In this document: positions 943 to 22,565 of the stretch, piece by piece
Position numbering within the stretch: position 1 is the stretch's first letter
Layout of the letters: each line of letters starts with the position of its first letter
NCBI GenBank assembly: GCA_004556155.1
Contig: SFIM01000038.1
Span: 1-26,517 of the forward strand
Source: Clostridiales bacterium
Lineage (GTDB): Bacteria; Bacillota; Clostridia; Christensenellales; Aristaeellaceae
Length of the DNA stretch: 26,517 nucleotides
Direction of reading: 5' to 3'
The notes under the pieces: model-generated
Database searches by the model: none
What the model was told of the DNA's origin: nothing
Seen by the model: the letters and a program-made list of their open reading frames with translations, nothing else
Translations under genes and position numbers: made by a program

Positions 943-997
943 AAATGCCGCTCCTTCACGATGCAATATAGAGATAATAATCTGCAACGCGCAGATA

Positions 998-1026
998 TTG
1001 CGATTCCCCATTTATTTTACTATACT
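998..1026 (+). promoter_or_regulatory. Candidate sigma-A promoter of melA
   Basis: -35 TTGCGA (998-1003), 17-nt spacer, -10 TATACT (1021-1026). RBS GGAGGA at 1059-1064. Confidence 0.45.
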
Positions 1027-1070
1027 ATGCTTGATGTTGCAACCGATACTACGCATCATGGAGGAAATAT

Positions 1071-2381
1071 ATGCCTAAGATTACATTCATGGGCGCCGGC
1101 TCCAGCGTGTTTGCCAAGAACGTGCTAGGCGACTGCATGACGTCCCCGATCATGGAAAACAGCGAGATTGCCCTCTACGATATCGACGCGGACCGCATGG
1201 ACGACAGCAAGCGCATGCTGGACGCCATCAACAGGAACCTGGGCAACAAGGCCACCATCAAGACCTACCTGGGCGTGGAAAACCGCAAGGAGGCCCTGCG
1301 CGGTGCCAATTACGTGGTCAACGCCATTCAGGTGGGCCTGTACCGCCCCTGCACGGTGACGGACTTTGAAGTGCCCAAGAAGTACGGCCTGCGCCAGACC
1401 ATCGCCGACACCCTGGGCATCGGCGGCATCTTCCGCGCCCTGCGCACCATCCCCGTGATGCAGGACTTTGCCGACGATATGGCCGAGGTGTGCCCCAACG
1501 CCTGGTTCCTCAACTACACCAACCCCATGGCTATGCTGACCGGCTATATGCAGCGCTACACCCCCATCAAGACGGTGGGTCTGTGCCACAGCGTGCAGGT
1601 GTGCGCCAGCCACCTGCTCAAGGGGCTGGATATGCCCTATGACGATACCTATCAGTGGAAGATCGCCGGCATCAACCATCAGGCCTGGCTGCTGGAGATC
1701 CGCGATCCGCAGGGCAACGATCTGTATCCCGAAATCAAGCGCCGCGCGGCCGCGCGCACCGAGAAGCATGACGATATGGTGCGCTATGAGCTGATGAAGC
1801 GCTTTGGCTACTATGTGACCGAATCCAGCGAGCATAATGCTGAATACACGCCGTATTTTATCAAGGACAAGTATCCGGAGCTGATCGAGCGCTTCAACAT
1901 CCCGCTGGATGAGTATCCGCGCCGCTGCATCAAGCATGAGGAAAATTGGGCCACCCTGCGCGTGGAGCTGACCCAGAATGACAAGCTGACCCACGAGCGC
2001 AGCAAGGAATACGCCTGCCACATCATGGAGGCCATGGAAACCAACCAGCCCTACAAGATCGGCGGCAACGTGATCAACACGGGCCTGATCACCAACCTGC
2101 CGCAGAACGCCTGCGTCGAGGTGCCCTGCATTGTGGACAAGAGCGGCGTGACCCCGACCTTTGTGGGCGATCTGCCGGAGCAGTGCGCGGCGCTGAACCG
2201 CACCAACATCAACGTGCAGCTGCTGACTATTGAGGCGGCCAAGACCCTGAAGAAGGATTACATTTATCAGGCCGCACTGATGGATCCGCATCTGCAGAGC
2301 GAGCTGTCCATCGACGACATCGTTTCCCTGTGCGACGACATGATCGAGGCTCACAAGGGCTGGCTGCCGGAGTACAAGTAA
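1071..2381 (+). CDS. melA: Alpha-galactosidase, glycoside hydrolase family 4 (NAD/Mn-dependent)
   Basis: N-terminal KITFMGAGSSVFAKNVLGD Rossmann motif and GLCHSVQ catalytic-region motif. As far as I recall the Bacillus subtilis MelA sequence, the protein is colinear with it through to the shared C-terminus WLPEYK. Confidence 0.9.
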   Translation: MPKITFMGAGSSVFAKNVLGDCMTSPIMENSEIALYDIDADRMDDSKRMLDAINRNLGNKATIKTYLGVENRKEALRGANYVVNAIQVGLYRPCTVTDFEVPKKYGLRQTIADTLGIGGIFRALRTIPVMQDFADDMAEVCPNAWFLNYTNPMAMLTGYMQRYTPIKTVGLCHSVQVCASHLLKGLDMPYDDTYQWKIAGINHQAWLLEIRDPQGNDLYPEIKRRAAARTEKHDDMVRYELMKRFGYYVTESSEHNAEYTPYFIKDKYPELIERFNIPLDEYPRRCIKHEENWATLRVELTQNDKLTHERSKEYACHIMEAMETNQPYKIGGNVINTGLITNLPQNACVEVPCIVDKSGVTPTFVGDLPEQCAALNRTNINVQLLTIEAAKTLKKDYIYQAALMDPHLQSELSIDDIVSLCDDMIEAHKGWLPEYK

Positions 2382-3010
2382 GGGGAGTACGGGGGAACGG
2401 TGGGAACGTTACTTTCTTCAGGGAAGAAAGTAACAAAGAACCTGCGTGTGACGTAAAAGTCAATTGAATTAAGCTGGGAGTGGCCCTGGCCACCTGGCCA
2501 CCCGCCCCCGTGGCAGGGAAAAACTCAAATCGCTCGGTTCGGAGTAAACTCCAACCGGGCGATTCTTCATTTTTCCCCTTCGGTCGTGCTGCGCACGCCC
2601 TGCGCTGATCTGCGATCAGCGTGCCACGGGGGGTGTAGTTGGGTGTGGCGAACAAGCGCAGCGTCTAATGATAGTTGGACAGAATGGCCACCAAAAGGCT
2701 TCTCCTTGAGGAGAGGCTCCGCCGTAGGCGGTGGTGAGGTGTAGGCTACGAAGTAACCGTTGGCAAAGTATTTATAAAGGATAACGCGGCGGCGGCTACA
2801 CCTCATCAGTCAGCTCTCGCTGACAGCTTCTCCTCAAGGAGAAGCCCAGGCTGTCGAAAAAACTTTTTCGACAGCCTGCCGATGCAAGTCAGCTAAAGCA
2901 GACTTGTATCGGGAACGTCATTTTCTTGTGAGCCTGCGGCTCACGGCCAGAAAATGACAAAGGAAGCAGCCTGACGGCTGCTCCTCGCACCGCGCATGTC
3001 GCTGCTCTGC
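2382..3010. repeat. Composite repeat locus: left half of the modular palindrome, inverted central module (2697-2846) and hairpin-train module (2848-3006)
   Basis: G-rich tract at 2382-2407. Terminal hairpin GTTACTTTCTTCAGGGAAGAAAGTAAC at 2408-2434. The arm matches 9886-10075. 2697-2846 is the reverse complement of 10159-10310. 2848-3006 matches 18076-18234 with 4 mismatches. Confidence 0.85.
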
Positions 3011-3050
3011 CGTGCCCTCCCCTGATATTCATTTCACGCTTCACGAAACT

Positions 3051-3110
3051 ATTGTTTCACGTGAAACATTGTGGTAAAGTATAGATACGAAATTGTTTCA
3101 CGTGAAACAT
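3051..3110 (+). promoter_or_regulatory. addA promoter flanked by two identical 16-bp perfect palindromes (candidate operator pair)
   Basis: TGTTTCACGTGAAACA occurs at 3053-3068 and 3094-3109 (19-nt direct repeat ATTGTTTCACGTGAAACAT), with centres 41 bp apart. Candidate -35 TTGTTT (3052-3057), 17-nt spacer, extended -10 TGgTAAAGT (3072-3080). Confidence 0.55.
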
Positions 3111-3125
3111 CAAGGGGGGATCATC

Positions 3126-6100
3126 ATGCCGCAATGGACGCAGGCGCAGCGGGAGGCCATCGACGCGCGCAACAGCGAGCTGCTGGTCAGCGCAGCGGCA
3201 GGCAGCGGCAAGACGGCCGTGCTGGTGGAGCATGTGCTGCAATTGCTGCGCGAGGGCGGGCAGATCAACCGCCTGCTGATTATCACCTTCACCCGTGCTG
3301 CGGCGGCGGAGCTGCGCGAACGCCTGATCGCCGCGCTGGATGCGGAGGCGGCGGGCAACGCGCATCTGCGCCGGCAAATGCTGCTGGCGCGCCGCGCGCA
3401 GATCAGCACGCTGCATGTGTTTTGCCATCGCGTCATTCGCCAGCATTTTCAGGCGGCGGATGTCGATCCCATGGCCAAGGTGGGCGAGAATACCGCGCTG
3501 GAGCCGCTTTTGCAGCGTGCGCTGGATGAAAGCGTGGAGGAGCTGTGCCAGTCCGATTTCCCCGACGCGCAGGCGCTGACCAGCCAGTACCAGGATGCGC
3601 AGATCGTCGAAATGGCGCGTCAGCTATACACCTTCCTGCGCGCGCAGGCCGATCCGGAAGCGTGGCTGAGCCAGCACATGGCCGATCCCGCCGGGGCCGG
3701 GCTTGCGCCCTTCCTGCTGATCCTGCGCAAGGAAGCGCTGCTGTGCCTGGAGGGCGCGGAGCAGCTGAACGATCAATGCCTGCGCCTGCTGGAGCTGCCC
3801 GGCGCGCCCGTGCATCTGCTTCCCACCGCGCAGGCCGATCAGGCGCTGCTGGCCGCTTTGCGCGATGCGCTGCGGCAGGATACCCTGCCTGCGGGCGAAT
3901 TGCGCTTTGCCGTCAAGGCACGCGCGCCCAAGAACGCGGATTTTGACCCCGCGCTGGCCGATCGCTTTACCTCCCTGCGTGACCGCATGAAGGAGCTGGC
4001 CAAGCAGGCGCGCGCCATGGTGCCCGCCGATATCGATCAGGCACGCGCCGAGGTGGCCGCCACCCTGCCCGCTCTGCGCGCGCTGATCGGCCTGGTGCAG
4101 GCCATGGATGCGCGCTATGCGCAGTACAAGCAGGAGAAAAACCTGCTGGATTATGGCGATTTGGAGCATTTGGCCCTCAAGGCGCTGGATGACGCGCAGG
4201 TGCGGCAGAGCGTGGCCGAGGGCTACGATGCGATCTTTGTCGATGAGTATCAGGATGTGTCGGCCATCGAGGAGGCCATCGTCCGCCGCGTGCACAATGA
4301 AAACAACCGTCTGTTCATGGTGGGTGACGTCAAGCAGTCCATTTATCGCTTCCGGCTGGCCGATCCCACGCTGTTTTTGAGCAAATATGAGCAGTTTGGC
4401 AGCGAAAAGAAGGCCGTTTCGCGCCGCATCCTGCTGAGCCGCAATTTCCGTTCGCGCGGCAATATCCTGGCTGCCGTCAACTGCGTGTTTGCCCGCGCCA
4501 TGCGCCGCGGCGCTACCGAGATTGCCTATGACGACGACGCGGCCCTGCACGCGGGGCTGGAAAGCACGGGCGACCCTGCCGTGCAGCTGCATATCATCAA
4601 CGACGATACCCAGGAGCCCGCGCCGGACGCGCAGGAGGAGGGCGACGATGCGGGCGAGGCGCGCAAGGGCTGGATGTACGAGGCGCAGCTGGCCGCGCGG
4701 CTGATCCGCGAGCAGGTGGGCCATCCCATCCGGGATAAGAACGGCGAGCGCGCCCTGCGCTATCGGGATTGCGTGATCCTGCTGCGCTCCGCCAGCGGCC
4801 GCGCGCCGCTGATTGCCAAGATTCTGGCCAGCGAGGGCGTGCCTGCCTACAGCGACGCCGACGCGCAGTATTTTGACCTGCCCGAGGTGCGGGATGTGAT
4901 GAACGTGCTGCGCGTGCTGGACAACCCCTATCAGGATGTGCCGCTGCTCAGCGCCCTGCGCTGCCCGTGCTTTGGCTTCACCAGCGCGCGGCTGGCCGAG
5001 ATCCGCCTGCGCGATGATACGCGGCAAAAGCCCTTCTATCAGGTGTTTTTCGCCCTGCGGGAGCAGGAGGAGGATGTGCGCGCAGCCTGCGAACGGCTGG
5101 ATACATGGCGCTTCTGGGCGCAGCATCTGCCCACCGACCGGCTGCTGTGGCGCATCCTGTCGCAGTCCGGGCTATACGCCCTGGCCGGGGCGCAGCGGGA
5201 TGGCGCGGCGCGGCAGGCCAATCTGCGCCTGCTGTGCGAGCGCGCGCAGGCAGACGGCGCGCGGGCTTCGCTGCATGATTTTCTGTCCGTCAGCGATCTG
5301 GCCAACCGCACGGGCGATGCGGGCGCGGCGCGCGAATTGGGCGAAAACGACGATGTGGTGCGCATCATGACGCTGCACAAATCCAAGGGGCTGGAGTTTC
5401 CGCTGGTCATCCTGATGGAGCTGGCGCGCAATTTCCGCATGCCCTCGGACGGGGAGCTGCTGCGCACCGACGCGCAGGCTGGCCTGGCCCTCAAGCGCGT
5501 GGACGCCGAGCGCCGCGTGACCGGGCACACGGTGGCTGGGCGGGCGCTGGCCTGCAAGCAGGCGCGGCAGATCAAGGCGGAGGAAGCGCGGCTGCTGTAC
5601 GTGGGCATGACCCGCGCGCGGGAGCGGCTGATCCTGCTGTCCTCGCCGCGCAGCATGCAGGGCGTGGCCGAGATGCGCGATATGCCCGAGGGCGATTACG
5701 CGGCGGGCTGCGCGCGCTGCATGCTGGATTGGGTGGTGCAGGCTGTGGGCGAGGGGCTGCGGACGGGGCGCGACACGCTGTTCACGGCGGCCAATGGCAG
5801 CCTGTGGGATCTGCGCTATCATGGCAGCGCGGAGTTCAGTCAGCGCTTACCGCAAGAGGAAAAATTTTTCATTCCGGATTTGTCCGAGCCGCCTTCTGCC
5901 GATTTCTGCGCGCAGATGGCGCGTCCGCCGCGGCAATCGCAGCTGCAAAAGACCAGCGTGACGGCACTTCTGCGCGGCGCGGTCTGGACGGAGGATACCG
6001 AGGAAACGCCCGAAAGCAAGCGAAAAGCGCTGCATTTGGATACGATGCCGCCTGAACTTCCGCCGTTTTTGGCTGGAACGCAGCTATCGGCGGCCGATCG

Positions 6101-6569
6101 CGGCACGGCGGCGCACAAGGCGCTGGGAGCGCTTGATTTGTCCCTGCTGCGCGGCGCGGAGGCTTTGCCGGCAGCAGTGAACGCGCAGCTTGCTGCGCTG
6201 TCGCGTCGCGGCGTGCTGACGGCGGAGGAGCTGGCGGCCATCGATCCCGGCGACATCCTGGCCTTTTTGCGCAGCGATATGGGCGCGCGGATGCTGGCCA
6301 GCCCGCGCGTGCAGCGCGAGTGGGGTTTCTGCCTGCGGGATGGCGATCTGCTGGTGCAGGGCGTGATCGATCTATGCTTCCTCGAAAACGGCGCGTGGGT
6401 GCTGGTGGATTACAAGACCGACCGCTGCCCCGCCGAGGAGCTGCCTGCGATGTACGGCGATCAGCTGCGCTGGTACGCCCGCGCCCTGCGCGAGATCACC
6501 GGCCTGCCGGTGCGGTTTGGCGGGCTGTACAGCCTGCGCCGCCGGACGCTTGTGCCGGTGGAGGTATAA
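3126..6569 (+). CDS. addA: ATP-dependent helicase/nuclease subunit A (AddA/RexA type: UvrD-like SF1 helicase plus C-terminal PD-(D/E)XK nuclease)
   Basis: Start set at MPQWTQAQ (ATG 3126) behind AAGGGGGGA. Walker A AAAGSGKTAVL, DEYQD Walker B, VGDVKQSIYRFR, TLHKSKGLEF and VGMTRAR helicase motifs. C-terminal GVIDLCF...VLVDYKTD RecB-type nuclease motif. Confidence 0.88.
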   Translation: MPQWTQAQREAIDARNSELLVSAAAGSGKTAVLVEHVLQLLREGGQINRLLIITFTRAAAAELRERLIAALDAEAAGNAHLRRQMLLARRAQISTLHVFCHRVIRQHFQAADVDPMAKVGENTALEPLLQRALDESVEELCQSDFPDAQALTSQYQDAQIVEMARQLYTFLRAQADPEAWLSQHMADPAGAGLAPFLLILRKEALLCLEGAEQLNDQCLRLLELPGAPVHLLPTAQADQALLAALRDALRQDTLPAGELRFAVKARAPKNADFDPALADRFTSLRDRMKELAKQARAMVPADIDQARAEVAATLPALRALIGLVQAMDARYAQYKQEKNLLDYGDLEHLALKALDDAQVRQSVAEGYDAIFVDEYQDVSAIEEAIVRRVHNENNRLFMVGDVKQSIYRFRLADPTLFLSKYEQFGSEKKAVSRRILLSRNFRSRGNILAAVNCVFARAMRRGATEIAYDDDAALHAGLESTGDPAVQLHIINDDTQEPAPDAQEEGDDAGEARKGWMYEAQLAARLIREQVGHPIRDKNGERALRYRDCVILLRSASGRAPLIAKILASEGVPAYSDADAQYFDLPEVRDVMNVLRVLDNPYQDVPLLSALRCPCFGFTSARLAEIRLRDDTRQKPFYQVFFALREQEEDVRAACERLDTWRFWAQHLPTDRLLWRILSQSGLYALAGAQRDGAARQANLRLLCERAQADGARASLHDFLSVSDLANRTGDAGAARELGENDDVVRIMTLHKSKGLEFPLVILMELARNFRMPSDGELLRTDAQAGLALKRVDAERRVTGHTVAGRALACKQARQIKAEEARLLYVGMTRARERLILLSSPRSMQGVAEMRDMPEGDYAAGCARCMLDWVVQAVGEGLRTGRDTLFTAANGSLWDLRYHGSAEFSQRLPQEEKFFIPDLSEPPSADFCAQMARPPRQSQLQKTSVTALLRGAVWTEDTEETPESKRKALHLDTMPPELPPFLAGTQLSAADRGTAAHKALGALDLSLLRGAEALPAAVNAQLAALSRRGVLTAEELAAIDPGDILAFLRSDMGARMLASPRVQREWGFCLRDGDLLVQGVIDLCFLENGAWVLVDYKTDRCPAEELPAMYGDQLRWYARALREITGLPVRFGGLYSLRRRTLVPVEV

Positions 6570-6923
6570 GGGGTTACGGTACTTTCTTGGAGCCCAAGAA
6601 AGTACCAAAGAAGGCTGCGTTGTAGACGAAAAAGTCAAATTAATAAAACTGGGAGTGGCCCTTGCCACCTGCCGCCCCGCCCCGTGGCACGCCGATGCAA
6701 TCGGCGCGGGCTAGCGAAGCCAGACCATAGGGGAAATATTCAAGGGAACGGATGGCGCTTGCGCCGATCCGGGCACGCAGAATTTTCCCTGCCACGGGGG
6801 GCGGGTGGCCAGGGCCACTCCCAGTTTTATTCAAGCAGCTTTCACGTCACACACAGATTCTTTGTTACTTTCTTCCCTGAAGAAAGTAACGTTTCCCTCG
6901 TTCCTTCGTCCCCCTATCTCCCG
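6570..6923. repeat. Complete minimal copy of the modular palindromic repeat (about 354 bp imperfect hairpin)
   Basis: Starts at the base after the addA stop (6567-6569). Terminal hairpins at 6578-6606 and 6864-6890. The arms ...AAAACTGGGAGTGGCCCTTGCCACC... and ...GGTGGCCAGGGCCACTCCCAGTTTT... are inverted repeats. C-rich tract at 6891-6923. Confidence 0.85.
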
Positions 6924-6931
6924 AAAAAGGC

Positions 6932-6960
6932 TTGACATTTCGCGCCAAATTGCGTACCAT
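6932..6960 (+). promoter_or_regulatory. Candidate sigma-A promoter of nagB
   Basis: -35 TTGACA (6932-6937), 17-nt spacer, -10 TACCAT (6955-6960), immediately after the repeat ends. Confidence 0.5.
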
Positions 6961-7010
6961 GAAAGCGGTCATAATTTGCTGCGCGGCAGCATATCATAGA
7001 GGTGTTAAGC

Positions 7011-7730
7011 ATGAAAATTATCCGGGATACCCAGCGCAACTGTGCGCGCATGGCGGCGGAGGAATACCGCAAGCTGCTGGGTGAAAATCCGCACTGCGTC
7101 CTTGGCCTGGCCACGGGCTCCACGCCCGAAATGCTCTATGAAGAGTTGGTTGCCCTGTGCAAGGCGGGCAAGCTCTCCTTCAAGGATGTAACCACCTATA
7201 ACCTGGACGAGTATGTGGGCCTGGATGGCTCCCATCCCCAGAGCTACCGCTACTTCATGGACAGCCACCTGTTCAACCTGGTGGATATTGACAAGACCCG
7301 CACGCACGTGCCCTGCGGCGTTGGCGTGACGGACGAGATGGCGGCGCACTACGACGATGAAATCAAGCAGGCCGGCGGCGTGGATCTGCAGCTGCTGGGC
7401 ATCGGCCCCAACGGCCATATCGGCTTTAACGAGCCCGGCACGCCCTGGGACGCAGTTACGCACATCGTGCCCCTGACCGACGCGACCCGCCAGGCCAATA
7501 AGCGCTTCTTCAATTCCATTGACGAGGTGCCCGAAAAGGCTGTGTCCATGGGCATCAAGACCGTGATGCAGTCCCGCAGGATCATCCTGATGGCCTTTGG
7601 CAAGAACAAGGCCCAGGCCGTCAAGGGCATGATCGAGGGCCGCATTGATAACAGCGTGCCCGCCTCCATCCTGCAGCTGCATCCCGACTGCACCGTCTAT
7701 ATTGACGATGACGCCGCGTCCATGCTATAA
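7011..7730 (+). CDS. nagB: Glucosamine-6-phosphate deaminase
   Basis: Start at MKIIRD (ATG 7011) with AGAGG 8 nt upstream. Contains LGLATGSTP, YNLDEYVG and LLGIGPNGHIGFNEPG, which are typical NagB motifs. Confidence 0.9.
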   Translation: MKIIRDTQRNCARMAAEEYRKLLGENPHCVLGLATGSTPEMLYEELVALCKAGKLSFKDVTTYNLDEYVGLDGSHPQSYRYFMDSHLFNLVDIDKTRTHVPCGVGVTDEMAAHYDDEIKQAGGVDLQLLGIGPNGHIGFNEPGTPWDAVTHIVPLTDATRQANKRFFNSIDEVPEKAVSMGIKTVMQSRRIILMAFGKNKAQAVKGMIEGRIDNSVPASILQLHPDCTVYIDDDAASML

Positions 7731-7749
7731 TACAACCGCAAAAAGCCTT

Positions 7750-7788
7750 GCCGCTAAAAGAACAAAAGCCTTTTAGCGGCCATTTTTT
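7750..7788 (+). terminator. Intrinsic terminator or attenuator between nagB and glmM
   Basis: Stem GCCGCTAAAAG (7750-7760) pairs with CTTTTAGCGGC (7770-7780), followed by a TTTTTT tract (7783-7788). Confidence 0.7.
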
Positions 7789-7817
7789 ACTTTTGTGTGA
7801 TGAAAAAGGAGGACAGA

Positions 7818-9167
7818 ATGGGCAAATACTTTGGCACCGACGGCTTCCGCGGCGAAGCCAACCGCGAGCTTACCGCCATGCACGCCTTCCAGCTGGGGCA
7901 GTTTTTAGGCTCCTTTTATGGCAGCCAGGCGCGCCGCGCGCGCGTGGTCATCGGCAAGGATACCCGCGCCTCCGGCTATATGCTGGAGGATGCGCTGTGC
8001 GCAGGGCTTACCTCCGCCGGCGCGGATGCGTATCTTCTGCACGTCACCCCCACGCCCAGCGTGTCCTATGTGGCCCGCACCGAGGGCTTTGACTGCGGCG
8101 TGATGATCAGCGCCAGCCACAATCCCTATTGGGATAACGGGCTCAAGCTTGTCAACGCCCAGGGCGAAAAGATGGAGGACGCGGTGATCGAGCGCGCCGA
8201 GGCGTTTCTGGATGCGGGCGCGTCCGCGCCGCTGGCCACGCGCGAGCGCATCGGCCGCGTGGTGGATCACGCCGCCGGGCGCAATCGCTATATCGGCTAC
8301 CTGATCTCGCTGGCTACGCACTCCTATAAGGGTCTGCGCGTGGGCCTGGACTGCGCCAATGGCTCCACCTGGCAGCTGGCCGAGAGCGTGTTCAAGGCCC
8401 TGGGCGCCGAGGTGACGGTGGTGGGCAATACGCCCAACGGCGAAAACATCAACGTGAACTGCGGCTCCACGCACATTGAAAATTTGCAGCGCCTGGTCAT
8501 CGAGCATGGGCTGGACGTGGGCTTTGCCTTTGACGGCGACGCGGATCGCTGCATCGCCGTGGACGAGCGCGGCCAGGCGGTGGATGGCGACCGCATCCTG
8601 TATTTATACGCCGCCTTCCTGCAAAAGCAGGGGCTGCTGGGCGCGGGGCACGTGGTGACCACCATCATGAGCAATATGGGGCTGTACCGCGCGCTGGACG
8701 CGCTGGGCATCGGCTACGAGCAGACCGACGTGGGCGATAAATACGTGTACGAGCGCATTCAGCAGCGCGGCGACCCGCTGGGCGGCGAGCAGAGCGGGCA
8801 CATCATCTTTGCCAAGTACGCCACCACCGGCGACGGCCTGCTGACGGCCATCAAGGTGATGCAGGCCATGCTGGCGCAAAAGCGCCCGCTGTCCGAGCTG
8901 CACGCGGGCATGGTCAGCTACCCGCAGGTGCTGATCAACGTGCGCGTGGCGGACAAGGCCGCGGCGGCCGCGCATCCGCAGGTAGTGGCGGCGCTGGAGG
9001 CCGCGCGCGCCGGGCTGGGCACGCAGGGGCGCATTCTGCTGCGCAAGAGCGGCACTGAGCCCGTGCTGCGCGTGATGTGCGAGGCCGAGGATGGTGATAT
9101 GGCGCAGCGCGCGGCGGACAGCGTGGCGGCGGCGCTGCGCGACAGCGGCATGGCAGTGGAGGGATAA
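7818..9167 (+). CDS. glmM: Phosphoglucosamine mutase
   Basis: Start at MGKYFGTDGFRG (ATG 7818) behind AAAGGAGG. Active-site SASHNP, FAFDGDADR metal loop and GGEQSGH motifs. Confidence 0.92.
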   Translation: MGKYFGTDGFRGEANRELTAMHAFQLGQFLGSFYGSQARRARVVIGKDTRASGYMLEDALCAGLTSAGADAYLLHVTPTPSVSYVARTEGFDCGVMISASHNPYWDNGLKLVNAQGEKMEDAVIERAEAFLDAGASAPLATRERIGRVVDHAAGRNRYIGYLISLATHSYKGLRVGLDCANGSTWQLAESVFKALGAEVTVVGNTPNGENINVNCGSTHIENLQRLVIEHGLDVGFAFDGDADRCIAVDERGQAVDGDRILYLYAAFLQKQGLLGAGHVVTTIMSNMGLYRALDALGIGYEQTDVGDKYVYERIQQRGDPLGGEQSGHIIFAKYATTGDGLLTAIKVMQAMLAQKRPLSELHAGMVSYPQVLINVRVADKAAAAAHPQVVAALEAARAGLGTQGRILLRKSGTEPVLRVMCEAEDGDMAQRAADSVAAALRDSGMAVEG

Positions 9168-9169
9168 AA

Positions 9170-9829
9170 ATGCTGTACAAGGTCAGCGATCTGTTTGATT
9201 TAACGCATACGCGCGCGGCGGAGCTATTGGAAAAGTGCGAGTATCCGCACGAGGTGCTGCCGCGCATCAAGCCTTTTATTCTGGCGCTGGGCGAAACGCT
9301 GCCCATCAGCGAATTCTTGCATCCTTCGCCCACGGTATGGATTGCGCGCGACGCGGTGGTTGCGCCCACGGCGTGCCTGGGCGAGTGCATCATCATCGAT
9401 CACGGCGCGGAGGTGCGCCACTGCGCCTACATCCGCGGCAGCGCGCTCATTGGCCGCGACGCGGTGGTGGGCAACAGCACGGAGCTGAAAAACGTGATCC
9501 TCTTTGACAACGTGCAGGTGCCGCACTACAACTATGTGGGCGACAGCGTGCTGGGCTACCGAGCGCACATGGGCGCGGGAGCCGTTACCAGCAATGTCAA
9601 GGGCGATCGCCAGCCGGTGGTGGTGCATCGCGGCAGCGAACGCATGGAGACCGGCCTGAAAAAGCTGGGCGCGATGCTGGGCGATTACGCCGAGATCGGC
9701 TGCGGCGCGGTGCTCAACCCCGGCGCAGTCATCGGCCGCGGCGCGCAGGTATACCCCCTGGTCAGCGTTCGCGGCACCGTCCCCGCCAACTGCATCCACA
9801 AGGGCGGCAGCGTTGTGGAGAAGCGGTAA
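9170..9829 (+). CDS. Stand-alone left-handed beta-helix (hexapeptide-repeat) acyltransferase resembling the GlmU C-terminal acetyltransferase domain
   Basis: Starts 2 nt after the glmM stop. Hexapeptide-like repeats (IGRDAVVGNSTELKNVILFDNVQVPHYNYVGDSVLGYRAHMGAGAVTSN ... GDYAEIGCGAVLNPGAVIGRGAQV). No N-terminal nucleotidyltransferase domain. Confidence 0.65.
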   Translation: MLYKVSDLFDLTHTRAAELLEKCEYPHEVLPRIKPFILALGETLPISEFLHPSPTVWIARDAVVAPTACLGECIIIDHGAEVRHCAYIRGSALIGRDAVVGNSTELKNVILFDNVQVPHYNYVGDSVLGYRAHMGAGAVTSNVKGDRQPVVVHRGSERMETGLKKLGAMLGDYAEIGCGAVLNPGAVIGRGAQVYPLVSVRGTVPANCIHKGGSVVEKR

Positions 9830-10628
9830 GGGGGGACGAGGAGACGGGGAGGTTACGGTACTTTCTTGGAGCCCAAGAAAGTACCAAAGAAGGCTGCGTG
9901 TGACGTGAAAGTCAAGCTGATAAAACTGGAAGGCGGCACTGCCGCCCCCCGTGGCAGGGAAAAACTTGAATCGCTCGGTCTGGAGTAAACTCCGCCCGAG
10001 CGATTCTTTATTTTTCCCCTATGGTCTGGCTTCGCCAGCCCTGCGCTGATCTGCGATCAGCGTGCTACGGGGCGTAATTGGGTGCGGGAATTAGACTTAG
10101 CTGATTGCGATCGTTGTGAAGAGAAGCCAAGTTTCTTGAAAATCGCACGACAAAAAAAGCCTTCTCCTTGAGGAGAAGGTGGCGAATGCAGTGAGCCGAA
10201 TGAGGTGTAGCCGCCGAAGCGGCGTAATCCTTATATTGCTTTGATAACGGCTGCTTCGCAGCCTACACCTCACCACCGCCTACGGCGGAGCCTCTCCTCA
10301 AGGAGAAGCCTTTTGGTGAGTGCACCTTTCAACTATCACCAATCGCTGTGCAGAGGTTCCGCAGCTACTCAACACGCCCCCGTGGCACGCCGATTTTAAT
10401 CGGCGCAGGGCTGGCGAAGCCAGACCGAAGGGGAAACATTCAAGTGGACGGATGGCGCTTGCGCCGATCCGGGCACGCAGAATTTTCCCTGCCGCGGGGG
10501 CGGGGCGGCAGTGCCGCCTCCCATTTTAATTCAACTGACTTTCACGTCACACACAGGTTCTTTGTTACTTTCTTCCCTGAAGAAAGTAACGTCCCCCCTT
10601 CGTCCCCCTCCCCTCGTTCCCCGTCCCC
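9830..10628. repeat. Largest, nested copy of the modular palindromic repeat (about 0.8 kb)
   Basis: Starts at the base after the stop at 9827-9829. G-rich tract at 9830-9856. Terminal hairpins at 9857-9885 and 10564-10590. Central module at 10159-10310. C-rich tract at 10591-10628. The left and right arms are imperfect inverted repeats. Confidence 0.88.
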
Positions 10629-10713
10629 TTTTGGGAACCGCCGCGGGCATTGGCAAAACAGTTGAAACATTTTTGTGCATTTATGCAGTGCTTTATTGCG
10701 AGAAAGTTACACT

Positions 10714-11076
10714 TTATCCACACTTTAGGGATAATTTACGGGGAAAAGTTGTGGATAACTTGGACAACAAAGTGGGGATAACTTTCACTATCCACAGCGG
10801 TTTTCCACCGTTAAAATGAAAAATTCAGGAAAATCGGTACTTTTCCCACTTTTTTCGGTGGATAACTATGTGGATAATGTGGATATCTCCCCTTTTGCTG
10901 TGGATATGCACCCATCCATGCAGTGTATACACCCACAGCGGTGGATTTCTGCGCAAATGCCGCCGGTTTTCCCCATCTGTGGGAAGGAACGTGAATATTC
11001 ATGCATATATGATGCATATTCACGCGACGCCGCGCATAGGCTGGTGGGGAAAAGGTGGGGATAAGCATGTGGAAAA
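10714..11076. promoter_or_regulatory. DnaA-box cluster (10 boxes with at most 1 mismatch to TTATCCACA)
   Basis: Perfect boxes: 10714-10722 (+), 10750-10758 (-), 10869-10877 (-). One-mismatch boxes: 10773-10781, 10788-10796, 10857-10865, 10878-10886, 10899-10907, 11056-11064, 11068-11076. An AT-rich stretch at 10801-10856 lies between the box groups. Confidence 0.8.
10992..11021 (+). promoter_or_regulatory. Candidate forespore (sigma-G-like) promoter of cwlD, lying in an inverted repeat
   Basis: TGAATA (10992-10997), 17-nt spacer, CATATTC (11015-11021), compared with the sigma-G consensus GHATR-N17/18-CATxHTA. The same bases form the inverted repeat GTGAATAT...ATATTCAC (10991-11023). Confidence 0.3.
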
Positions 11077-11780
11077 ACCGTGTATTTCTTTTGGGGGCGG
11101 CCGCGCTGGCGCTTTTGGCGATCGTATTTACCCTTTGTCGCAAAACCGTAACACCCTTGCCCCAGCCCGCGCCTGCGTCCACGCCGGCGCCCGGCCCGCT
11201 GACGGGCGTGACCATCTGCGTGGATCCCGGCCACGGCGGCTACGACGGCGGCGCGCGCGGGCAGGCTTCCGGCGCGCTGGAAAAGGACGTCAACCTGGCC
11301 GTGGCGCTGTGCCTGCGCCAGGAGCTACAGGCCGCGGGCGCGCAGGTGATCCTGACCCGCGATACGGACACGGCGCTGGCGGAGGAGGGCGCGCAGCGCA
11401 AGCGGCGCGATCTGCAATACCGCGTGGATGCGGCGCGCGAGGCGCGGCTCTTTCTCTCGATCCACATGAACGAGTATCGCACGCGCGCGGAGTCCGGGCC
11501 GCAGGTGTTTTACCGTGCGGGGCAGGAGGACAGCCGTCTGCTGGCCGGGGCGCTGCAGGCGCAGCTGATTGCGGGGCTGCGTCCTGCGCGCGAGCGCAGC
11601 GCGCACACGGGCGAATACTACCTGCTGGAGCACCTGGACATTCCGGCGGTGCTGGTGGAGTGCGGTTTTCTTTCCAACGCCGCCGAGGAGGCGAAGCTGC
11701 TGGACGCGGGGTATCAGCAGCAGGTGGCGCAGGCCATTTGCGCGGGGGTATGCGATTTTATCCAATTATCGGGGAAGTAG
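11067..11780 (+). CDS. cwlD: N-acetylmuramoyl-L-alanine amidase, CwlD type (germination-specific, Amidase_3)
   Basis: Start at MWKNRVFLLG (ATG 11067), giving 237 aa with an N-terminal TM segment. DPGHGGYDGGA, EKDVNL, RKRRDLQYRV, LSIHMN and VECGFLSN align with my recollection of B. subtilis CwlD. Confidence 0.8.
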   Translation: MWKNRVFLLGAAALALLAIVFTLCRKTVTPLPQPAPASTPAPGPLTGVTICVDPGHGGYDGGARGQASGALEKDVNLAVALCLRQELQAAGAQVILTRDTDTALAEEGAQRKRRDLQYRVDAAREARLFLSIHMNEYRTRAESGPQVFYRAGQEDSRLLAGALQAQLIAGLRPARERSAHTGEYYLLEHLDIPAVLVECGFLSNAAEEAKLLDAGYQQQVAQAICAGVCDFIQLSGK

Positions 11781-12199
11781 GAGGCGAGGGGGGAACGAGG
11801 GGGACGTTACTTTCTTCAGGAAAGAAAGTAACAAAGAACCTGTGTGTGACGTAAAAGTTAATTGGATTAAACTGGAAGGCGGCACTGCCGTTTTGTGCCC
11901 CGTGGCAGGGAAAATTCGCGGGCCCGGATCGGCGCAAGCGCCATCCGTCCCCTTGAATATTTCCCCTATGGTCTGGCTTCGCCAGCCCAAGGGGGAAAGC
12001 AGGAAGCGAACGGAGGAAAGCTTGCTTTCATCCGGGCGGTTCAGGCTTTCACCTGCCACGGGGGCATACAGACGGCCAGGGCCACTCCCAGTTTAAAACC
12101 AGCAGCTTTTCCGTCCACAACACAGGTTCTTTGTTTCTTTCTTGACTCAAGAAAGAAACGTCCCTCCCCCGTCCTCCCTCGTCCCCCTCGTCTCTCTCT
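11781..12199. repeat. Copy of the modular palindromic repeat with mixed arm variants
   Basis: Starts at the base after the cwlD stop (11778-11780). Terminal hairpins at 11806-11832 (GTTACTTTCTTCAGGAAAGAAAGTAAC) and 12133-12159 (GTTTCTTTCTTGACTCAAGAAAGAAAC). C-rich tract at 12160-12199. An inner module is shared, inverted, with 15056-15118. Confidence 0.85.
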
Positions 12200-12253: not shown

Positions 12254-12280
12254 GAGATGACTACAAAAGGGGGTCTTTTT

Positions 12281-14866
12281 ATGCGCCGCTTTATCAAGCG
12301 TTTTTTGCCTACTCTGCTCTGCGCGCTGCTGATCGCCCAGGGCGCGCTGGCTTATACCACGCTGCGTCCCGGCGATAAGGGCGCGGATGTGCTGCGCATG
12401 CAGCAGGCGCTGTCCGCGCTGGGCTACACCGTCACATGCGACGGCTCCTTCGGCACGCAAACGTACACCGCCGTCTATAACTTTCAGAACGATTACGGCC
12501 TGAAGGTGGATGGCAAGGCCGGCGATCAAACGCTGACCAAGCTGTACGAATTGTACAACAGCATGTCCACCAAGCCCGGCGGCAGCCAGGGCGGCGCCTC
12601 CACGGGCACGCAGACCCCGCCCGCCACGGTGTATTGCGCCAACGGCGGCAGCCTGAACGTGCGCCGCGGCCCCGGCACCGGCTATGCCGCCTTCTATCAA
12701 ATCCCCAACGGCGCAACGGTGAATGTGCTGGAGCGCGGCAGCAAGTGGTGCCAGATCAGCTACGATTCCACCGTGACTGGCTATGTGATGACCTCCTTCC
12801 TGCGCTTTTCGCAGGATACGCCCGTGGTCACGCCCTCTCCCGATACCAGCATGGAAACGGCCTATGTTTCCTGCGCGGACGGCGGCAGCCTGAACCTGCG
12901 CCAGCGCCCCGTATCGGGCGGGAAGATCCTCACCCGCGTGCCCAACGGCACGCAGCTGCGCGTCACCCGCGTGGATGGCAAGTGGTGCTATACCACCTAC
13001 AACGGCCAGTCGGGCTATGTGATGAGCAGCTTCCTGTATTTCGCCTCCGTCCCCGCGCTGCCCACCCCCACGCCGGTCATCAGCCCCACGCCCGTGCCCC
13101 CCACCGCCGGCAGCGATGCGCTGACCGCCCGCGTGCAGCCCGCCAACGGCGGCAGCCTGAACCTGCGCCAGCGTCCGGCCTCCGGCAATAACGTGATCGC
13201 GCAGATTCCCTACGGCACGGTGCTGAGCGTCACCCGCATCGACGCCACCTGGTGCCTGACCACCTATAACGGCCAGGCCGGCTATGTGATGAGCAAGTTC
13301 CTCACCTTCTACGGCGGCGCGGTCACGCCCACGGCCACCCCCACGCCCAGCGTGAACCCCGGCACCGAGCTGCTGCCGGGCTATGTATACTGCGCCAACG
13401 GCAAAAAGCTGAACCTGCGCTCCGGCCCCGGCCTGACCTACGACGTGCTGTTCAAGATTCCCAACGGCGCGGCCGTCACCGTCACCCAGCGCCTTACCGG
13501 CTGGTACTGCGTATCCTATGAAAGCTATACCGGCTTTGTCAACAGCGATTACATCGTGCTCAGCGGCGGTGCGCCCACCGTGCCCTCCGTGGCCACGCCC
13601 ACGCCCGTGCCCTCCAGCGACAGCACCATCCATTACGGCGAGCTGCGCTACGCCACGGTCAATACGGTGAACAACTCCCTGAACGTGCGCAAGGTCCCCG
13701 GCGGCCGGCAGATCGGCTCCTTCCAGAAGGGCAGCCGCGTGGTGGTATCGCAGATCCTCACCGTGGACGGCGTGGAATGGTGTGCGGCCTATCAGGGTGG
13801 CCTCAGCGGCTATGTGCAGCGCCAGTACCTGGTGCTGGATGCGCGCGTGACCCCCGCCCCCACCACGCCCGACACCGCCTACGACACCTCCATCCTGGTG
13901 CGCAACCTCAAGCTCAACAGCACCGGCGCGGATGTGCGCCTGGTGCAGACGCGCCTGGTGGAGCTGAACTACCTCTCCTCCGCCAACGGCACCTACGACT
14001 CCGCCACGCAGACGGCAGTGAAGCGCTTCCAGCAGCTGCACGGCCTGAGCCAGGATGGCGTGGCCGGCCCCAACACGTTTAAGCTGCTGTTCTCCTCCAC
14101 GGCGCTGCCTTACAGCACCGAGGCCTCCAACTACACCAGCTACCTGATCGACTATAACGAATCGGCCAACGAGGTGCGCACCAAGGCCATTCAGCGCGCG
14201 CAGCTGGCGCTATCCAACCTGAACTACAACGTGGCGACCGACGGCAAATTCAACGAGGCCATGCACGACGCGCTGGTTGCCTTCCAGCTGCGCAACGGCA
14301 TCACGGCCACGGGCGTGCTGGATGCGGCCACGCAGGCGCGCCTGTACTCCGGCAAGGCCAACGACGCGGCCACCGCGCCGCGCGAATACCTGGCCGATAA
14401 CGCGGGCTACACGGCCAATCCGCCCAAGGCCAGCGATGTAAAGCTGCTGCACTGGTACAACACGGTCAAGCCCATGATGAGCAGCGGCACGGCCTTTACG
14501 GTATACGATCCCGACAGCGGCTTATCCTGGAAGCTGCAGGTGCTTTCGCCCGGCCGTCACTGCGACAGCCAGCCCGTCACCCTGCAGGATACGCTGATCA
14601 TGCAGAAGGCCTTTGACGGCAAGAGCAGCTGGAACATGCACATCGTCTATGTGCAGCTGCCCAACGGCACCTGGTGCATGGCCGGCATGCACAACCGCCC
14701 GCACCAGAGCAACGGCATCCTGGGCAACGGCTTCGGCGGCCATCTGTGCGTGCACTTCCTGCGCGATATGGACGAGACCAAGAAGGCCGATCCTGTGACC
14801 GGCGTGCAGTATCAGAACCTGCTGCGCGACGCCTGGTACAACCTGACCGGCGAAAAGATCAACTAA
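12281..14866 (+). CDS. Secreted cell-wall-binding protein: signal peptide, PG_binding_1 domain, five SH3b repeats with Pro/Thr linkers, two more PG_binding_1 domains, and an unassigned C-terminal domain
   Basis: Start at MRRFIKRFLPTLLCALLIAQGALA (ATG 12281) behind AAAGGGGG. Five repeats of the type GGSLNLRQRP..G..I..IP.G..L.V.....WC.TTYNGQ.GYVMS.FL. PG-binding motifs occur three times (YTVTCDGSFGTQTYTAVYNFQNDYGLKVDGKAG and two later copies). Confidence 0.8.
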   Translation: MRRFIKRFLPTLLCALLIAQGALAYTTLRPGDKGADVLRMQQALSALGYTVTCDGSFGTQTYTAVYNFQNDYGLKVDGKAGDQTLTKLYELYNSMSTKPGGSQGGASTGTQTPPATVYCANGGSLNVRRGPGTGYAAFYQIPNGATVNVLERGSKWCQISYDSTVTGYVMTSFLRFSQDTPVVTPSPDTSMETAYVSCADGGSLNLRQRPVSGGKILTRVPNGTQLRVTRVDGKWCYTTYNGQSGYVMSSFLYFASVPALPTPTPVISPTPVPPTAGSDALTARVQPANGGSLNLRQRPASGNNVIAQIPYGTVLSVTRIDATWCLTTYNGQAGYVMSKFLTFYGGAVTPTATPTPSVNPGTELLPGYVYCANGKKLNLRSGPGLTYDVLFKIPNGAAVTVTQRLTGWYCVSYESYTGFVNSDYIVLSGGAPTVPSVATPTPVPSSDSTIHYGELRYATVNTVNNSLNVRKVPGGRQIGSFQKGSRVVVSQILTVDGVEWCAAYQGGLSGYVQRQYLVLDARVTPAPTTPDTAYDTSILVRNLKLNSTGADVRLVQTRLVELNYLSSANGTYDSATQTAVKRFQQLHGLSQDGVAGPNTFKLLFSSTALPYSTEASNYTSYLIDYNESANEVRTKAIQRAQLALSNLNYNVATDGKFNEAMHDALVAFQLRNGITATGVLDAATQARLYSGKANDAATAPREYLADNAGYTANPPKASDVKLLHWYNTVKPMMSSGTAFTVYDPDSGLSWKLQVLSPGRHCDSQPVTLQDTLIMQKAFDGKSSWNMHIVYVQLPNGTWCMAGMHNRPHQSNGILGNGFGGHLCVHFLRDMDETKKADPVTGVQYQNLLRDAWYNLTGEKIN

Positions 14867-14920: not shown

Positions 14921-15142
14921 GGGGGAGGACGGGGGGACGGGGGAGAGACGGTACTTTCTTGAGTCAAGAAAGTACCAAAGAACCTGTGTTGTGAACGGGA
15001 AAGCTGCTGGTTTTAAACTGGGAGTGGCCCTGGCCACCTGCCGCCCCGCCCCCGTGGCAGGTGAAAGCCTGAACCGCCCGGATGAAAGCAAGCTTTCCTC
15101 CGTTCGCTTCCTGCTTTCCCCCTTCGTCTCCCCCGTCCTCTC
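14921..15142. repeat. Half copy of the modular palindromic repeat
   Basis: G-rich tract at 14921-14949. Terminal hairpin GGTACTTTCTTGAGTCAAGAAAGTACC at 14950-14976. One arm plus one inner module, and a C-rich tract ending about 15142. There is no second terminal hairpin. Confidence 0.8.
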
Positions 15143-15655: not shown

Positions 15656-17493
15656 AAGAAGCGAAATCCCCCAAGAAACCGTTGATTTTTTACTACGGCG
15701 TGGTGCTGGCCGTGCTGCTGGCGTTCAATATGATCGTCTCCCCCCTGCTGCTGGAGCGGCAGGTGACGGAGGTGGATTACGGCACGTTCATGCGCATGAT
15801 CGACGATAAGGATATCGGCGAGGTGCAGATGGACGACAGCGAGATTCTGTTTTCCAATAAGGCGGGCGACGCGGTGTATAAGACCGTCGCTTTGCAGGAT
15901 AGCACGCTGGTGCAGCGCCTGTACGAGGCGGGCGCCAAGTTCTCCGGCACGGTGGAAAAAACCATGTCCCCCCTGCTGAGCCTGCTGCTTACCGGCGTGC
16001 TGCCGCTGCTGGTTTTTGTGGCGCTGGGCCAGTTCCTCAGCCGCAAGCTCATTGAGCAGGCCGGCGGCAAGAACGCCATGAGCTTTGGCATGGGCAAGAG
16101 CAACGCCAAGGTGTATGTGCAGTCCAGCCAGGGCATCCATTTCAGCGATGTGGCGGGCGAGGACGAGGCCAAGGAAAGCCTGGCCGAGATTGTGGATTAT
16201 CTGCATAACCCGCAGAAATACACCGAGGTTGGCGCGTCCATGCCCAAGGGCGTGCTGCTTGTGGGCCCTCCAGGCACCGGTAAAACCATGCTGGCCAAGG
16301 CTGTCGCGGGCGAGGCCAACGTGCCCTTCTTCTCCATCTCCGGCTCGGAATTTGTGGAAATGTTCGTAGGTATGGGCGCAAGCAAGGTGCGCGATCTGTT
16401 CAAGCAGGCCAAGGAAAAGGCGCCCTGCATCGTGTTTATCGATGAAATCGACGCCATCGGCCAGAAGCGCAACAGCGGCAACATGGGCGGCAACGACGAG
16501 CGCGAGCAGACCCTGAACCAGCTGCTGACCGAAATGGACGGCTTTGAGGGCAACAACGGCGTGATCATTCTGGCCGCCACCAACCGCCCCGAGGCGCTGG
16601 ATCCCGCGCTGACGCGCCCCGGCCGCTTTGACCGCCGCGTGCCTGTGGAGCTGCCCGACTTGCAGGGCCGCGAGGCCATTTTGAAGGTGCACGCCCGCAA
16701 GATCAAGACCACGCCCGATGTGGACTTCCACGTCATCGCGCGCATGGCCTCGGGCGCCTCGGGCGCGGAGCTGGCCAACATCATCAATGAGGCGGCGCTG
16801 CGCGCGGTGCGCGATCATCGCACCCAGGTGACGCAGGCCGACCTGGAAGAAAGCATCGAAGTCGTCATCGCAGGCTATCAGAAGAAGAACGCCGTGCTGT
16901 CCGATCAGGAAAAGCACGTGGTGGCCTATCACGAGATTGGCCACGCGCTGGTAGCGGCGCTGCAAAGCCATTCCGCCCCGGTGCAGAAGATCACCATTAT
17001 CCCCCGCACCTCCGGCGCGCTGGGCTATACCATGCAGGTGGAGGAGGCCGATAAGAACCTGCTGACCAAGCAGGAATTGCTCAATAAAATCGCCACCCTG
17101 ACCGGCGGCCGCGCGGCGGAGGAGGTCAAGTTTGGCGAGATCACCACGGGCGCGTCCAACGATATCGAGCAGGCCACCAAGCTGGCCCGCGCCATGATTA
17201 CCCGCTACGGCATGAGCGATGAATTTGACATGGTGGCCATGGAAACCGTGACCAACCAGTACCTGGGCGGCGACGCGCAGCTGAGCTGCTCGGCCGAAAC
17301 CCAGCGCGAGATCGACCGCAAGGTGGTAAACGTGGTGCGCGAGCAGCACGAAAAGGCGCGCAAGATTCTGGATGAAAACCGCGCCAAGCTGGACGAACTG
17401 TCCCAGTACCTGTACGAGAAGGAAACCATCACGGGCGAGGAATTCATGCGCATCCTGGAGGCGGATACCAGGAAGGAGGAGCAGAACAAATGA
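15652..17493 (+). CDS. ftsH: ATP-dependent zinc metalloprotease FtsH
   Basis: Two N-terminal TM segments. Walker A GPPGTGKT, Walker [13 protein letters not shown] region [20 protein letters not shown], and zinc site HEIGHAL. Confidence 0.95.
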
Positions 17494-18042: not shown

Positions 18043-18337
18043 AAGCGTTCCTGAGCAAATGGCTCAGGACGCTTCAGGCTGTCGAAAAACCTTTTTCGAC
18101 AGCCTGACGATGCAAGTCAGCTAAAGCGGACTTGCATCGGGAACGTCATTTTCTTGTGAGCCTGCGGCTCACGGCCAGAAAATGACAAAGGAAGCAGCCT
18201 GACGGCTGCTCCTCGCACCGCGCATGTCGCTGCTATATGAAGGGGCTGCGGCCCCTTCATGCATCCCAAGAGTTTAAGCGAGACTTTTTTAACAATCTGA
18301 AGCGTTCCTGAGCAAATGGCTCAGGACGCTTTTTTAT
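18043..18337. repeat. Hairpin-train module (18076-18234) plus extra hairpins, flanked by a 32-bp direct duplication of a terminator hairpin
   Basis: AAGCGTTCCTGAGCAAATGGCTCAGGACGCTT occurs at 18043-18074 and 18300-18331. The interior contains the hairpins AGGCTGTCGAAAAACCTTTTTCGACAGCCT, GATGCAAGTC..GACTTGCATC, CGTCATTTTCT..AGAAAATGAC, GCAGCCTGACGGCTGC and GAAGGGGCTGCGGCCCCTTC. 18076-18234 is about 97% identical to 2848-3006. Confidence 0.85.
18300..18337 (+). terminator. Intrinsic terminator (second copy of the duplicated hairpin, the one that keeps the T-tract)
   Basis: Stem AGCGTTCCTGAGC pairs with GCTCAGGACGCT, followed by TTTTTT (18331-18336). Confidence 0.7.
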
Positions 18338-21595: not shown

Positions 21596-21943
21596 TGGTG
21601 GAGGCGAGGGGAATCGAACCCCTGTCCGAAGACCGAATTACAGGATTTTCTCCGAGCGCAGGACGCATTTTGGATTTCCCTTGCCCCAGCGCCTGCGAAC
21701 GGGCTATGGGGCTTGGTAGCTTCATTTTACCGGCCTCGCCGCAAAGCTTAGGCGGGCCTGTTCCTCACATCAATGACGCTGCTTGCCAAAGCCGTGAGCG
21801 CTTTGGGGCAACGCGCAGCCATTAGGCCGCGAAAGCGTAACTGTTATTGTCAGTTAATTTTAATTTCCCCGTTTTTACGAGGCCAGGGTCCTCGGCTCGC
21901 TTATCCTGTCCTTCGCCATCCCCGTCGAAACCAGAACGCCCCC
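21596..21943 (-). ncRNA. ssrA: tmRNA (transfer-messenger RNA)
   Basis: On the minus strand the RNA reads 5' GGGGGCGUUCUGGUUUCGACGGGG ... GGACAGGGGUUCGAUUCCCCUCGCCUCCACCA 3'. The acceptor stem has the G3:U pair. The internal tag frame GAC AAU AAC AGU UAC GCU UUC GCG GCC UAA encodes ...DNNSYAFAA-stop. smpB lies directly upstream. Confidence 0.95.
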
Positions 21944-21946
21944 GCG

Positions 21947-22417: not shown

Positions 22418-22447
22418 GCGCGTCACTCCTTTCCATAGCGGTATAAT

Positions 22448-22476: not shown

Positions 22477-22565
22477 TATGCAATGTGCGCGCGGCGGGAT
22501 ATCCGCCTGTGCGGTTTTATCAGCCTTTATCAGCTTTATCAGTTAGACAGCTTGGAGGCTTCAAA

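Follow-up and report, generated by a model that had tools for sequence, protein, structure and literature searches.

An array of predicted DnaA boxes conserved upstream of cwlD lies 16 kb from the predicted replication origin in a Christensenellales bacterium

A dense cluster of predicted DnaA boxes overlaps the start of the spore-cortex gene cwlD in the stretch of DNA analysed here, 26,517 nucleotides from a Clostridiales bacterium of the family Aristaeellaceae (order Christensenellales), hereafter the window. By sequence comparison the cluster is a real, evolutionarily conserved array of predicted DnaA sites. The real oriC of the species is, as judged from its sequence, an unwinding module upstream of dnaN. 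We consider it fairly probable that the cluster is an origin-proximal DnaA-box cluster (DBC) that controls cwlD in cis and also sequesters DnaA.

Boxes were sought as matches to TTATCCACA on both strands, with at most 1 mismatch allowed. Ten such 9-mers lie at 10714-11076, a span of 363 bp; the whole 26.5-kb window contains 14, compared to a mean of 2.25 in dinucleotide shuffles, and 10 of the 14 are inside this span. The same ten had been listed in an earlier note made from the sequence, and the repeated search returned every one of them at the same coordinates and on the same strand. The note's estimate of about 0.08 matches expected by chance was also right, the figure being 0.097 when the region's own composition (45% GC) is used, and the maximum seen in 20,000 shuffles of the region was 3 matches. 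The cluster lies in intergenic DNA and its number of boxes is comparable to the 4-12 of the B. subtilis clusters. The 1.2-kb spacer 5' of cwlD is made up of a stack of repeats (9830-10615) followed by unique, box-bearing sequence (10640-11066). A blastn search of the region against a plasmid database gave no match. An Rfam scan of the region gave nothing at gathering thresholds and one sub-threshold match (E up to 1), located inside the repeat zone; with no match at gathering thresholds, an RNA gene was rejected as an explanation of the region.

The leftmost box (10714-10722, plus strand) is a perfect TTATCCACA; it is lineage-specific, being degenerate in the three relatives aligned with the window (L011, L012 and L013). 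A sigma-70-like promoter match (GTTACA-18-GATAAT, 10706-10735, plus strand) has this box in its spacer; the match is kept only in L011, and from it a vegetative transcript, repressed by DnaA, could cross the cluster in the direction of cwlD. The next box (10750-10758, minus strand) is perfect and kept in all four aligned species. Two boxes with 1 mismatch follow, TTATCCCCA at 10773-10781 on the minus strand, which is conserved, and CTATCCACA at 10788-10796 on the plus strand, the conservation of which is weak. An extra box, TTTTCCACC, with 2 mismatches (10801-10809, plus strand) was missing from the earlier list; 89% of its columns are invariant and its version in L013 is TTATCCACC. An AT-rich spacer with phased A/T tracts and without DnaA-trios (10810-10856) then separates the plus-strand boxes from a head-to-tail triple on the minus strand, GGTGGATAA cta TGTGGATAA TGTGGATAT (10857-10886), whose boxes begin at 10857, 10869 (perfect) and 10878, giving a start-to-start spacing of 12 and 9 nt. 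This triple is the core of the cluster. It accounts for the first three of the four same-orientation boxes that had been recognised within 10857-10907, and that are indeed there; the fourth, ATATCCACA at 10899-10907 (minus strand), is common to the window and L011 only and sits where other species have a second triple.

The last two matches overlap the cwlD Shine-Dalgarno sequence and codons 1-4, as had also been observed earlier. The first of these (11056-11064, minus strand), another TTATCCCCA and hereafter the RBS box, overlaps the Shine-Dalgarno sequence. The second, the box-like 9-mer TTTTCCACA at 11068-11076 (minus strand), falls within codons 1-4 (ATG TGG AAA AAC), is shared only with L011 and is probably a by-product of the cwlD coding sequence. 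The gene itself (11067-11780, plus strand) encodes a cwlD-type N-acetylmuramoyl-L-alanine amidase of 237 aa with an Amidase_3 domain; the best NCBIfam match of the product is spore_cwlD TIGR02883 at 186 bits, which is below the cut-off of 221.6. cwlD is a late spore-cortex gene, needed for the muramic-delta-lactam of the cortex.

The association of boxes with cwlD was followed through 34 GTDB loci of the clade, comprising Christensenellales, CAG-74, Limiplasma and Aristaeellaceae MAGs from about 30 species with CwlD identities of 44-80%. Between 3 and 13 boxes are present within ~700 bp 5' of cwlD in 33 of the 34; some species have only 3-4, and in the single exception, L030, cwlD is present and the boxes are absent. 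Most box matches of a 20-kb locus are usually in its cwlD cluster. No such cluster was seen at the Lachnospiraceae, Desulfosporosinus, Dethiobacter and Bacilli loci that were compared. The genes that flank cwlD fall into at least four synteny groups on each side, and the linkage of cluster and cwlD is kept throughout. The layout also recurs, with one or two plus-strand boxes followed by the head-to-tail triple TGTGGATAAnnnTGTGGATAATGTGGATAA; a scan of 34 clade sequences detected the triple in 17, many with a second one ~54 bp downstream, and the architecture and orientation of the triple recur in species with only 44-60% CwlD identity.

In the alignment of four species (the window, L011, L012 and L013) 67% of columns were invariant in boxes versus 21% elsewhere. 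Boxes 1 and 2 of the triple are invariant in all four, and box 3 differs only in L013, where it is TGTGGAAAA. The RBS box (GTGGGGATAA directly 5' of the ATG) is 100% conserved in 4/4, with CwlD identity down to 62%. The boxes at 10714, 10788, 10899 and 11068 are lineage-specific or poorly conserved. This pattern of conservation in the alignment supports purifying selection on the boxes.

The DnaN protein of L011 was used as a probe to locate the dnaN locus of the window's own species, which was found on contigs L096-L099; these match the window at 5322-9942 with 98.2% identity and carry 8 boxes and a BUS upstream of dnaN. A BUS, the unwinding module of an origin, consists of tandem boxes, a GC spacer of ~4 bp, DnaA-trios and an AT-rich tract, with the trios 5' of boxes that read as TGTGGATAA (PMC8287927). 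The dnaN-proximal module of the species reads TTATCCACA TTATCCACC gccc CTA CTG CTA CTA, then an AT-rich tract and then dnaN. In L011, the closest GTDB relative (CwlD 80% identical), dnaN and cwlD diverge from a 993-bp spacer that contains 13 boxes, and the order beside the dnaN start is AT-rich tract, TAG TAG CAG TAG, ggac, GGTGGATAA TGTGGATAA. This orientation of trios relative to boxes agrees with that of E. coli DUE-R1. A formal scan found TAG TAG CAG TAG, gggc and tandem boxes upstream of dnaN in L096, a module 5' of dnaN likewise in L011, L091, L100 and L101 and a weaker one in L093; neither the window cluster nor the half of L011 nearer to cwlD gave a similar result. The oriC regions upstream of dnaN thus lie at 9600-10000 of L096, 1494-1900 of L011 and ~9550-10000 of L091, L093, L100 and L101.

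When E. coli DnaA was compared by tblastn with the window and each of the 112 loci, no dnaA came up, and six Christensenellales oriC-dnaN loci have no Bac_DnaA gene within 10 kb on either side; judging by these six, origin and dnaA are not linked in the order. The neighbour conserved on the upstream side of oriC-dnaN is a gene of the Glucosamine_iso family (239-240 aa). The spacer from GlgD to oriC-dnaN varies by strain: L103, L108 and L109 (~15.3-18.1 kb) have an extra LysR regulator and a gene for a 272-aa protein, and L111 has an rve-integrase insertion element (15843-16757) right beside the origin.

Only in L011 does dnaN fall inside the fetched flanks; in the other clade loci it is more than 10 kb from cwlD. 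The best 120 matches listed in a search for CwlD homologues were on short contigs only, with none of the 1.3-3.4 Mb dnaN contigs among them. The iso-PGM-hexapep-AddA block upstream of dnaN is shared with L091, and iso-dnaN with L093, L100 and L101; because these blocks are common to more distant relatives, the adjacency of cwlD and dnaN in L011 looks derived, not ancestral.

Both elements are carried together on a 221-kb contig, ERZ28759662:contig_8547, from which loci L001 and L107 both come (identical overlap of 9,531 bp). On this contig dnaN is at 62,737-63,849 (minus strand), the BUS at 63,898, six origin boxes at 63,915-64,249 and the cwlD cluster at 79,948-80,310, with cwlD starting at 80,301. 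The genes that follow the origin are GlgD, GlgC, RlmL, hexapeptide transferase, PGM, isomerase, AddA and GH4 (all minus strand) and AraC (plus strand), after which come a repeat zone, the cluster and cwlD. The distance from the BUS to the cluster is 16.0 kb, and from dnaN to the start of cwlD 16.45 kb. The dnaN module and the cwlD cluster are the only two box clusters in the 31.8 kb of the map, with 10 boxes in the cwlD cluster versus 6 in the dnaN-proximal part. Origin proximity was thus seen in this species (16 kb) and in L011 (adjacent). Ten of ten independent assemblies of the species, retrieved with the hexapeptide-transferase protein, share the order of contig_8547, on contigs that include some of 3.33 Mb, 938 kb, 621 kb and 484 kb. 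On the 3.33-Mb contig, ERZ28751751:contig_1402, the hexapeptide-transferase gene is at 2,071,521; if the map of the species carries over by homology, dnaN would be ~5.6 kb further along and the cwlD cluster ~10 kb off in the opposite direction.

The window itself is arranged differently. Compared to L001, L096 and L103-L112, the block AraC-GH4-AddA-isomerase-PGM-hexapeptide transferase, which occupies 1-9942, is inverted relative to cwlD. The hexapeptide transferase is joined to the cluster via a 69-bp shared repeat (9874-9942), and position 1 is the other junction. Since the junctions are in repeat sequence, either a ~9.8-kb inversion from AraC to the hexapeptide transferase has taken place between inverted copies, or the assembly has been misjoined through the repeat; the distance from cluster to origin is the same in both cases. 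The earlier note had counted it against an origin that plus-strand genes flank the cluster left and right, but that orientation is peculiar to this assembly and is the opposite in 10/10 others, and because it is unique in this way co-orientation was rejected as an argument against origin proximity. Its further remark that dnaN is not present in the window is true but misleading, as dnaN, together with oriC, would lie ~5-6 kb past the left end if the inversion model is followed.

The dispersed-repeat stack at 9830-10615 is a rearrangement breakpoint zone that lies outside the DnaA cluster. More copies of the same intergenic repeat are found at 11781-12187, and since 11781-11890 is inverted relative to 10506-10615, the cluster and cwlD are bracketed by inverted copies. 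The family occupies most intergenic regions of the window (2382-2844, 6680-6915, 9830-10615, 11781-12187 and 14921-15129) as units of ~110-450 bp that are 75-93% alike, occur in both orientations and contain a hairpin, GTTACTTTCTTCAGGGAAGAAAGTAAC, and a GC-rich hairpin, GGGGCGGCAGTGCCGCC. It has no Rfam match and looks MITE- or REP-like; metagenome contigs often end inside it. A second repeat of 160 nt is present as direct copies 15.2 kb apart and 98% identical (2847-3006 and 18075-18234), one upstream of AddA and the other upstream of a TldD/PmbA pair.

Other genes of the window may be mentioned here. The AddA-type helicase-nuclease (3093-6569; UvrD and PD-(D/E)XK domains) has no adjacent addB, and its upstream neighbour is a GH4 glycosidase. 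Downstream of cwlD, 12257-14866 encodes an 869-aa protein with three PG_binding_1 and four SH3_3 domains and weak similarity to SleB; the gene has internal DNA repeats (12874-13341) and a strongly negative GC skew, and a similar protein is encoded near dnaN in L100. From ~21.5 kb on, the genes are on the minus strand (SmpB, Peptidase_S51 and a GT4 glycosyltransferase at 23298-25319), and 21596-22483 holds a tmRNA gene (minus strand, tag peptide DNNSYAFAA) with smpB directly adjoining it (21947-22483, minus strand).

Could the cluster itself be the chromosomal origin, unwinding in the AT-rich stretch at 10810-10856? It has the highest box density in the 31.8-kb region, and the AT-rich stretch precedes TGTGGATAA-oriented boxes on their 5' side, where an unwinding module would have it. 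Against this, a scan of 10641-11100 for at least three DnaA-trios (5'-TAG/TAA, middle A) placed 0-16 nt 5' of a TGTGGATAA-oriented box found no TAG/TAA trio, only NAN runs inside the boxes themselves, and the module scan found no GC spacer in the cluster. Lacking a BUS, the cluster therefore lacks what defines an unwinding origin, and a canonical, phylogenetically conserved module is present beside dnaN in the same species. The AT-rich stretch reported earlier does exist, but it is no outlier in duplex stability within the window: its value is -33.9 kcal per 30-mer, seven other sites of the window are less stable than the best of the cluster, and the stability scan gave no exceptional minimum there. 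Over the 34 loci neither GC skew nor gene strand switches consistently at the cluster; the measure is flat even at the dnaN module and, being uninformative at the 10-kb scale even there, GC skew counts neither way. We therefore regard it as exceedingly improbable that the cluster is the origin. The earlier note had itself doubted this and had seen no DnaA-trios; both points hold, with the unwinding module now placed 16 kb off, upstream of dnaN. Its alternative of a DBC-type cluster is supported by the absence of trios and by the separate dnaN-proximal module on one and the same contig.

Alternatively, the cluster could be the detached left half of a bipartite origin that cooperates with the dnaN-proximal module in initiation, for instance through DnaA-mediated loops, with a 16-kb insertion in the usual place of dnaA (compare H. 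pylori oriC1, or the boxes that precede dnaA in B. subtilis). Known bipartite origins (B. subtilis incA/B and incC, C. difficile, H. pylori oriC1 and oriC2) resemble the present case in having two clusters, one of them with the unwinding module on the dnaN side. In L011 the two clusters are contiguous, module and boxes forming one continuous spacer between the divergent dnaN and cwlD. Also in favour of a split origin, gene orientation in the prevalent arrangement of the species diverges at the cluster/AraC and not at the unwinding module, the cluster has more boxes than the dnaN-proximal part, and dnaA is absent from the origin at the loci examined in the order. However, known halves are split by dnaA and are ~1.4 kb apart, a distance far exceeded by 16 kb, and here dnaA is absent. 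The second cluster follows cwlD, not the origin, in most relatives; about 30 other species of the clade keep it with cwlD at loci where dnaN is more than 10 kb off, without consistently divergent orientation, and the adjacency in L011, as argued above, looks derived. A split origin thus appears unlikely. That the array has no function and is the decaying remains of what was once an origin or a dnaA promoter region, or that it accumulated by chance, seems very improbable as well, if marginally less so than that it is the origin. A relic would predict what is seen at four of the ten boxes, which are poorly conserved or confined to the lineage, and in species with few boxes or none, but the core boxes have remained invariant while the spacers diverged to 21% invariant columns, the triple recurs in the same orientation in the most divergent species, and only 0.1 matches would be expected by chance.

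The reading as an origin-proximal DBC that acts on cwlD draws further on the sequence between the core and the start codon. An AT-rich inverted repeat at 10991-11023, pointed out earlier, exists and is here read as part of a sporulation-type promoter. The putative sigma-E-like cwlD promoter (10993-11042, plus strand) consists of two overlapping ATATT-N14-CATA matches, the proximal of which has its -35, GCATATT, at 11014-11020 and its -10, CATAGGCT, at 11035-11042, with a spacer of N14, and is kept in the nearest relatives. The pattern ATAWW-N13-15-CATA was matched in 5/34 clade sequences versus 1.5% in shuffles; on this count the promoter is supported for the nearest relatives only. Transcription of cwlD would then start near 11050, and the RBS box would be at about +6 to +14, a position that we infer, because the sigma-E-type pattern occurs in so few of the 34. 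Since the putative promoter is downstream of the main array, the RBS box would come shortly after the point where transcription begins, a placement that fits repression or a roadblock.

DnaA is the obvious ligand, as the same 9-mer is found at the species' own origin. DnaA, most likely in its ATP form, would bind the array cooperatively, with the triple at 10857-10886 as the nucleation core, and the flanking boxes in both orientations could give rise to an extended or looped DnaA complex. Occupation of the RBS box would most likely bring about repression of cwlD, or a roadblock, as long as DnaA is plentiful. The cluster has 10 boxes, 16 kb from an oriC that has 6, and may also sequester DnaA near the origin in the manner of the B. 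subtilis DBCs. The array is fixed to cwlD and its RBS box is invariant, so that locally the array probably acts above all by putting cwlD under DnaA control; such control is plausible, given that the cluster stays with cwlD across the order. Overall, the cluster probably holds back or times the expression of cwlD and takes up DnaA in the vicinity of oriC; we infer that DnaA occupies the boxes and is titrated by them, which promoter serves cwlD and in which direction the gene is regulated. Against this reading count the small number of clade sequences with the promoter pattern, origin proximity seen in two species only and the boxless cwlD of L030; the RBS box, moreover, partly coincides with the GGTGG Shine-Dalgarno sequence, and there is no obvious need for DnaA to repress a gene driven by a sporulation sigma factor.

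Among known systems the closest likeness is to the DBCs of B. subtilis. That bacterium has eight high-affinity DnaA regions of 4-12 boxes each, including six DBCs outside oriC (PMC4447404, PMC3245932). These regulate the neighbouring genes sda, ywlC, yydA and vpr and restrain initiation, which they do best near oriC (PMC4447404, PMC3245932); DBCs are usually origin-proximal in Firmicutes (Okumura et al.). Like the cwlD cluster, the B. subtilis DBCs (sda/yqeG, ywlC, ywcI-vpr, yydA-yycS, gcp-ydiF and trmE-jag) are intergenic Firmicute arrays of ~4-12 consensus boxes, outside the unwinding origin yet near it and beside a gene that may be regulated, and the sda DBC also ties DnaA to sporulation (PMC3245932, PMC4447404). 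The present array differs from them in its neighbour cwlD, which is not known as a target of DnaA, its Christensenellales clade and its fixed head-to-tail triple, and DnaA binding to it is predicted from sequence. The BUS of bacterial origins (Richardson 2016; Pelliciari 2021, PMC8287927) has in common with the cluster the 9-mer itself and tandem head-to-tail, TGTGGATAA-oriented boxes facing an AT-rich stretch; it differs in its trios and short GC spacer, which are absent from the cwlD cluster and present upstream of dnaN in the same species. E. coli datA is also an origin-proximal box cluster outside oriC, and it lowers active DnaA; it differs in acting by IHF-dependent hydrolysis of DnaA-ATP, in a proteobacterium with Hda and SeqA. 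To our knowledge no IHF site or equivalent is to be expected in Clostridia, and we know of no datA mechanism in Firmicutes; for the cwlD cluster such a mechanism finds no support. A full-text literature search found no paper pairing 'cwlD' with 'DnaA box'. What is new is therefore the conserved, cwlD-linked cluster, its triple-box architecture and the clade in which it occurs; DBCs and their proximity to origins were already known.

The predicted origin upstream of dnaN, with no dnaA nearby, is of use in its own right, as it helps the annotation of origins and peak-to-trough estimates of growth rate in metagenomes. Box density by itself is a misleading guide to origins, as here a cluster that is not the origin exceeds oriC in its number of boxes. 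Experiments on DnaA-box clusters outside oriC have so far been made in only a few model organisms, and a cluster that is conserved across an order of abundant, uncultured gut Clostridia offers a testable connection of DnaA with sporulation in bacteria other than Bacillus. A bolder form of this link, which we put forward only tentatively, is that DnaA gates the late sporulation gene cwlD across the Sda-less Christensenellales through a fixed operator of many boxes which doubles as the largest DnaA sink beside an origin without dnaA. If that were true, the cluster would act as a checkpoint that ties spore maturation to replication status, and it might be the working second half of a split origin.
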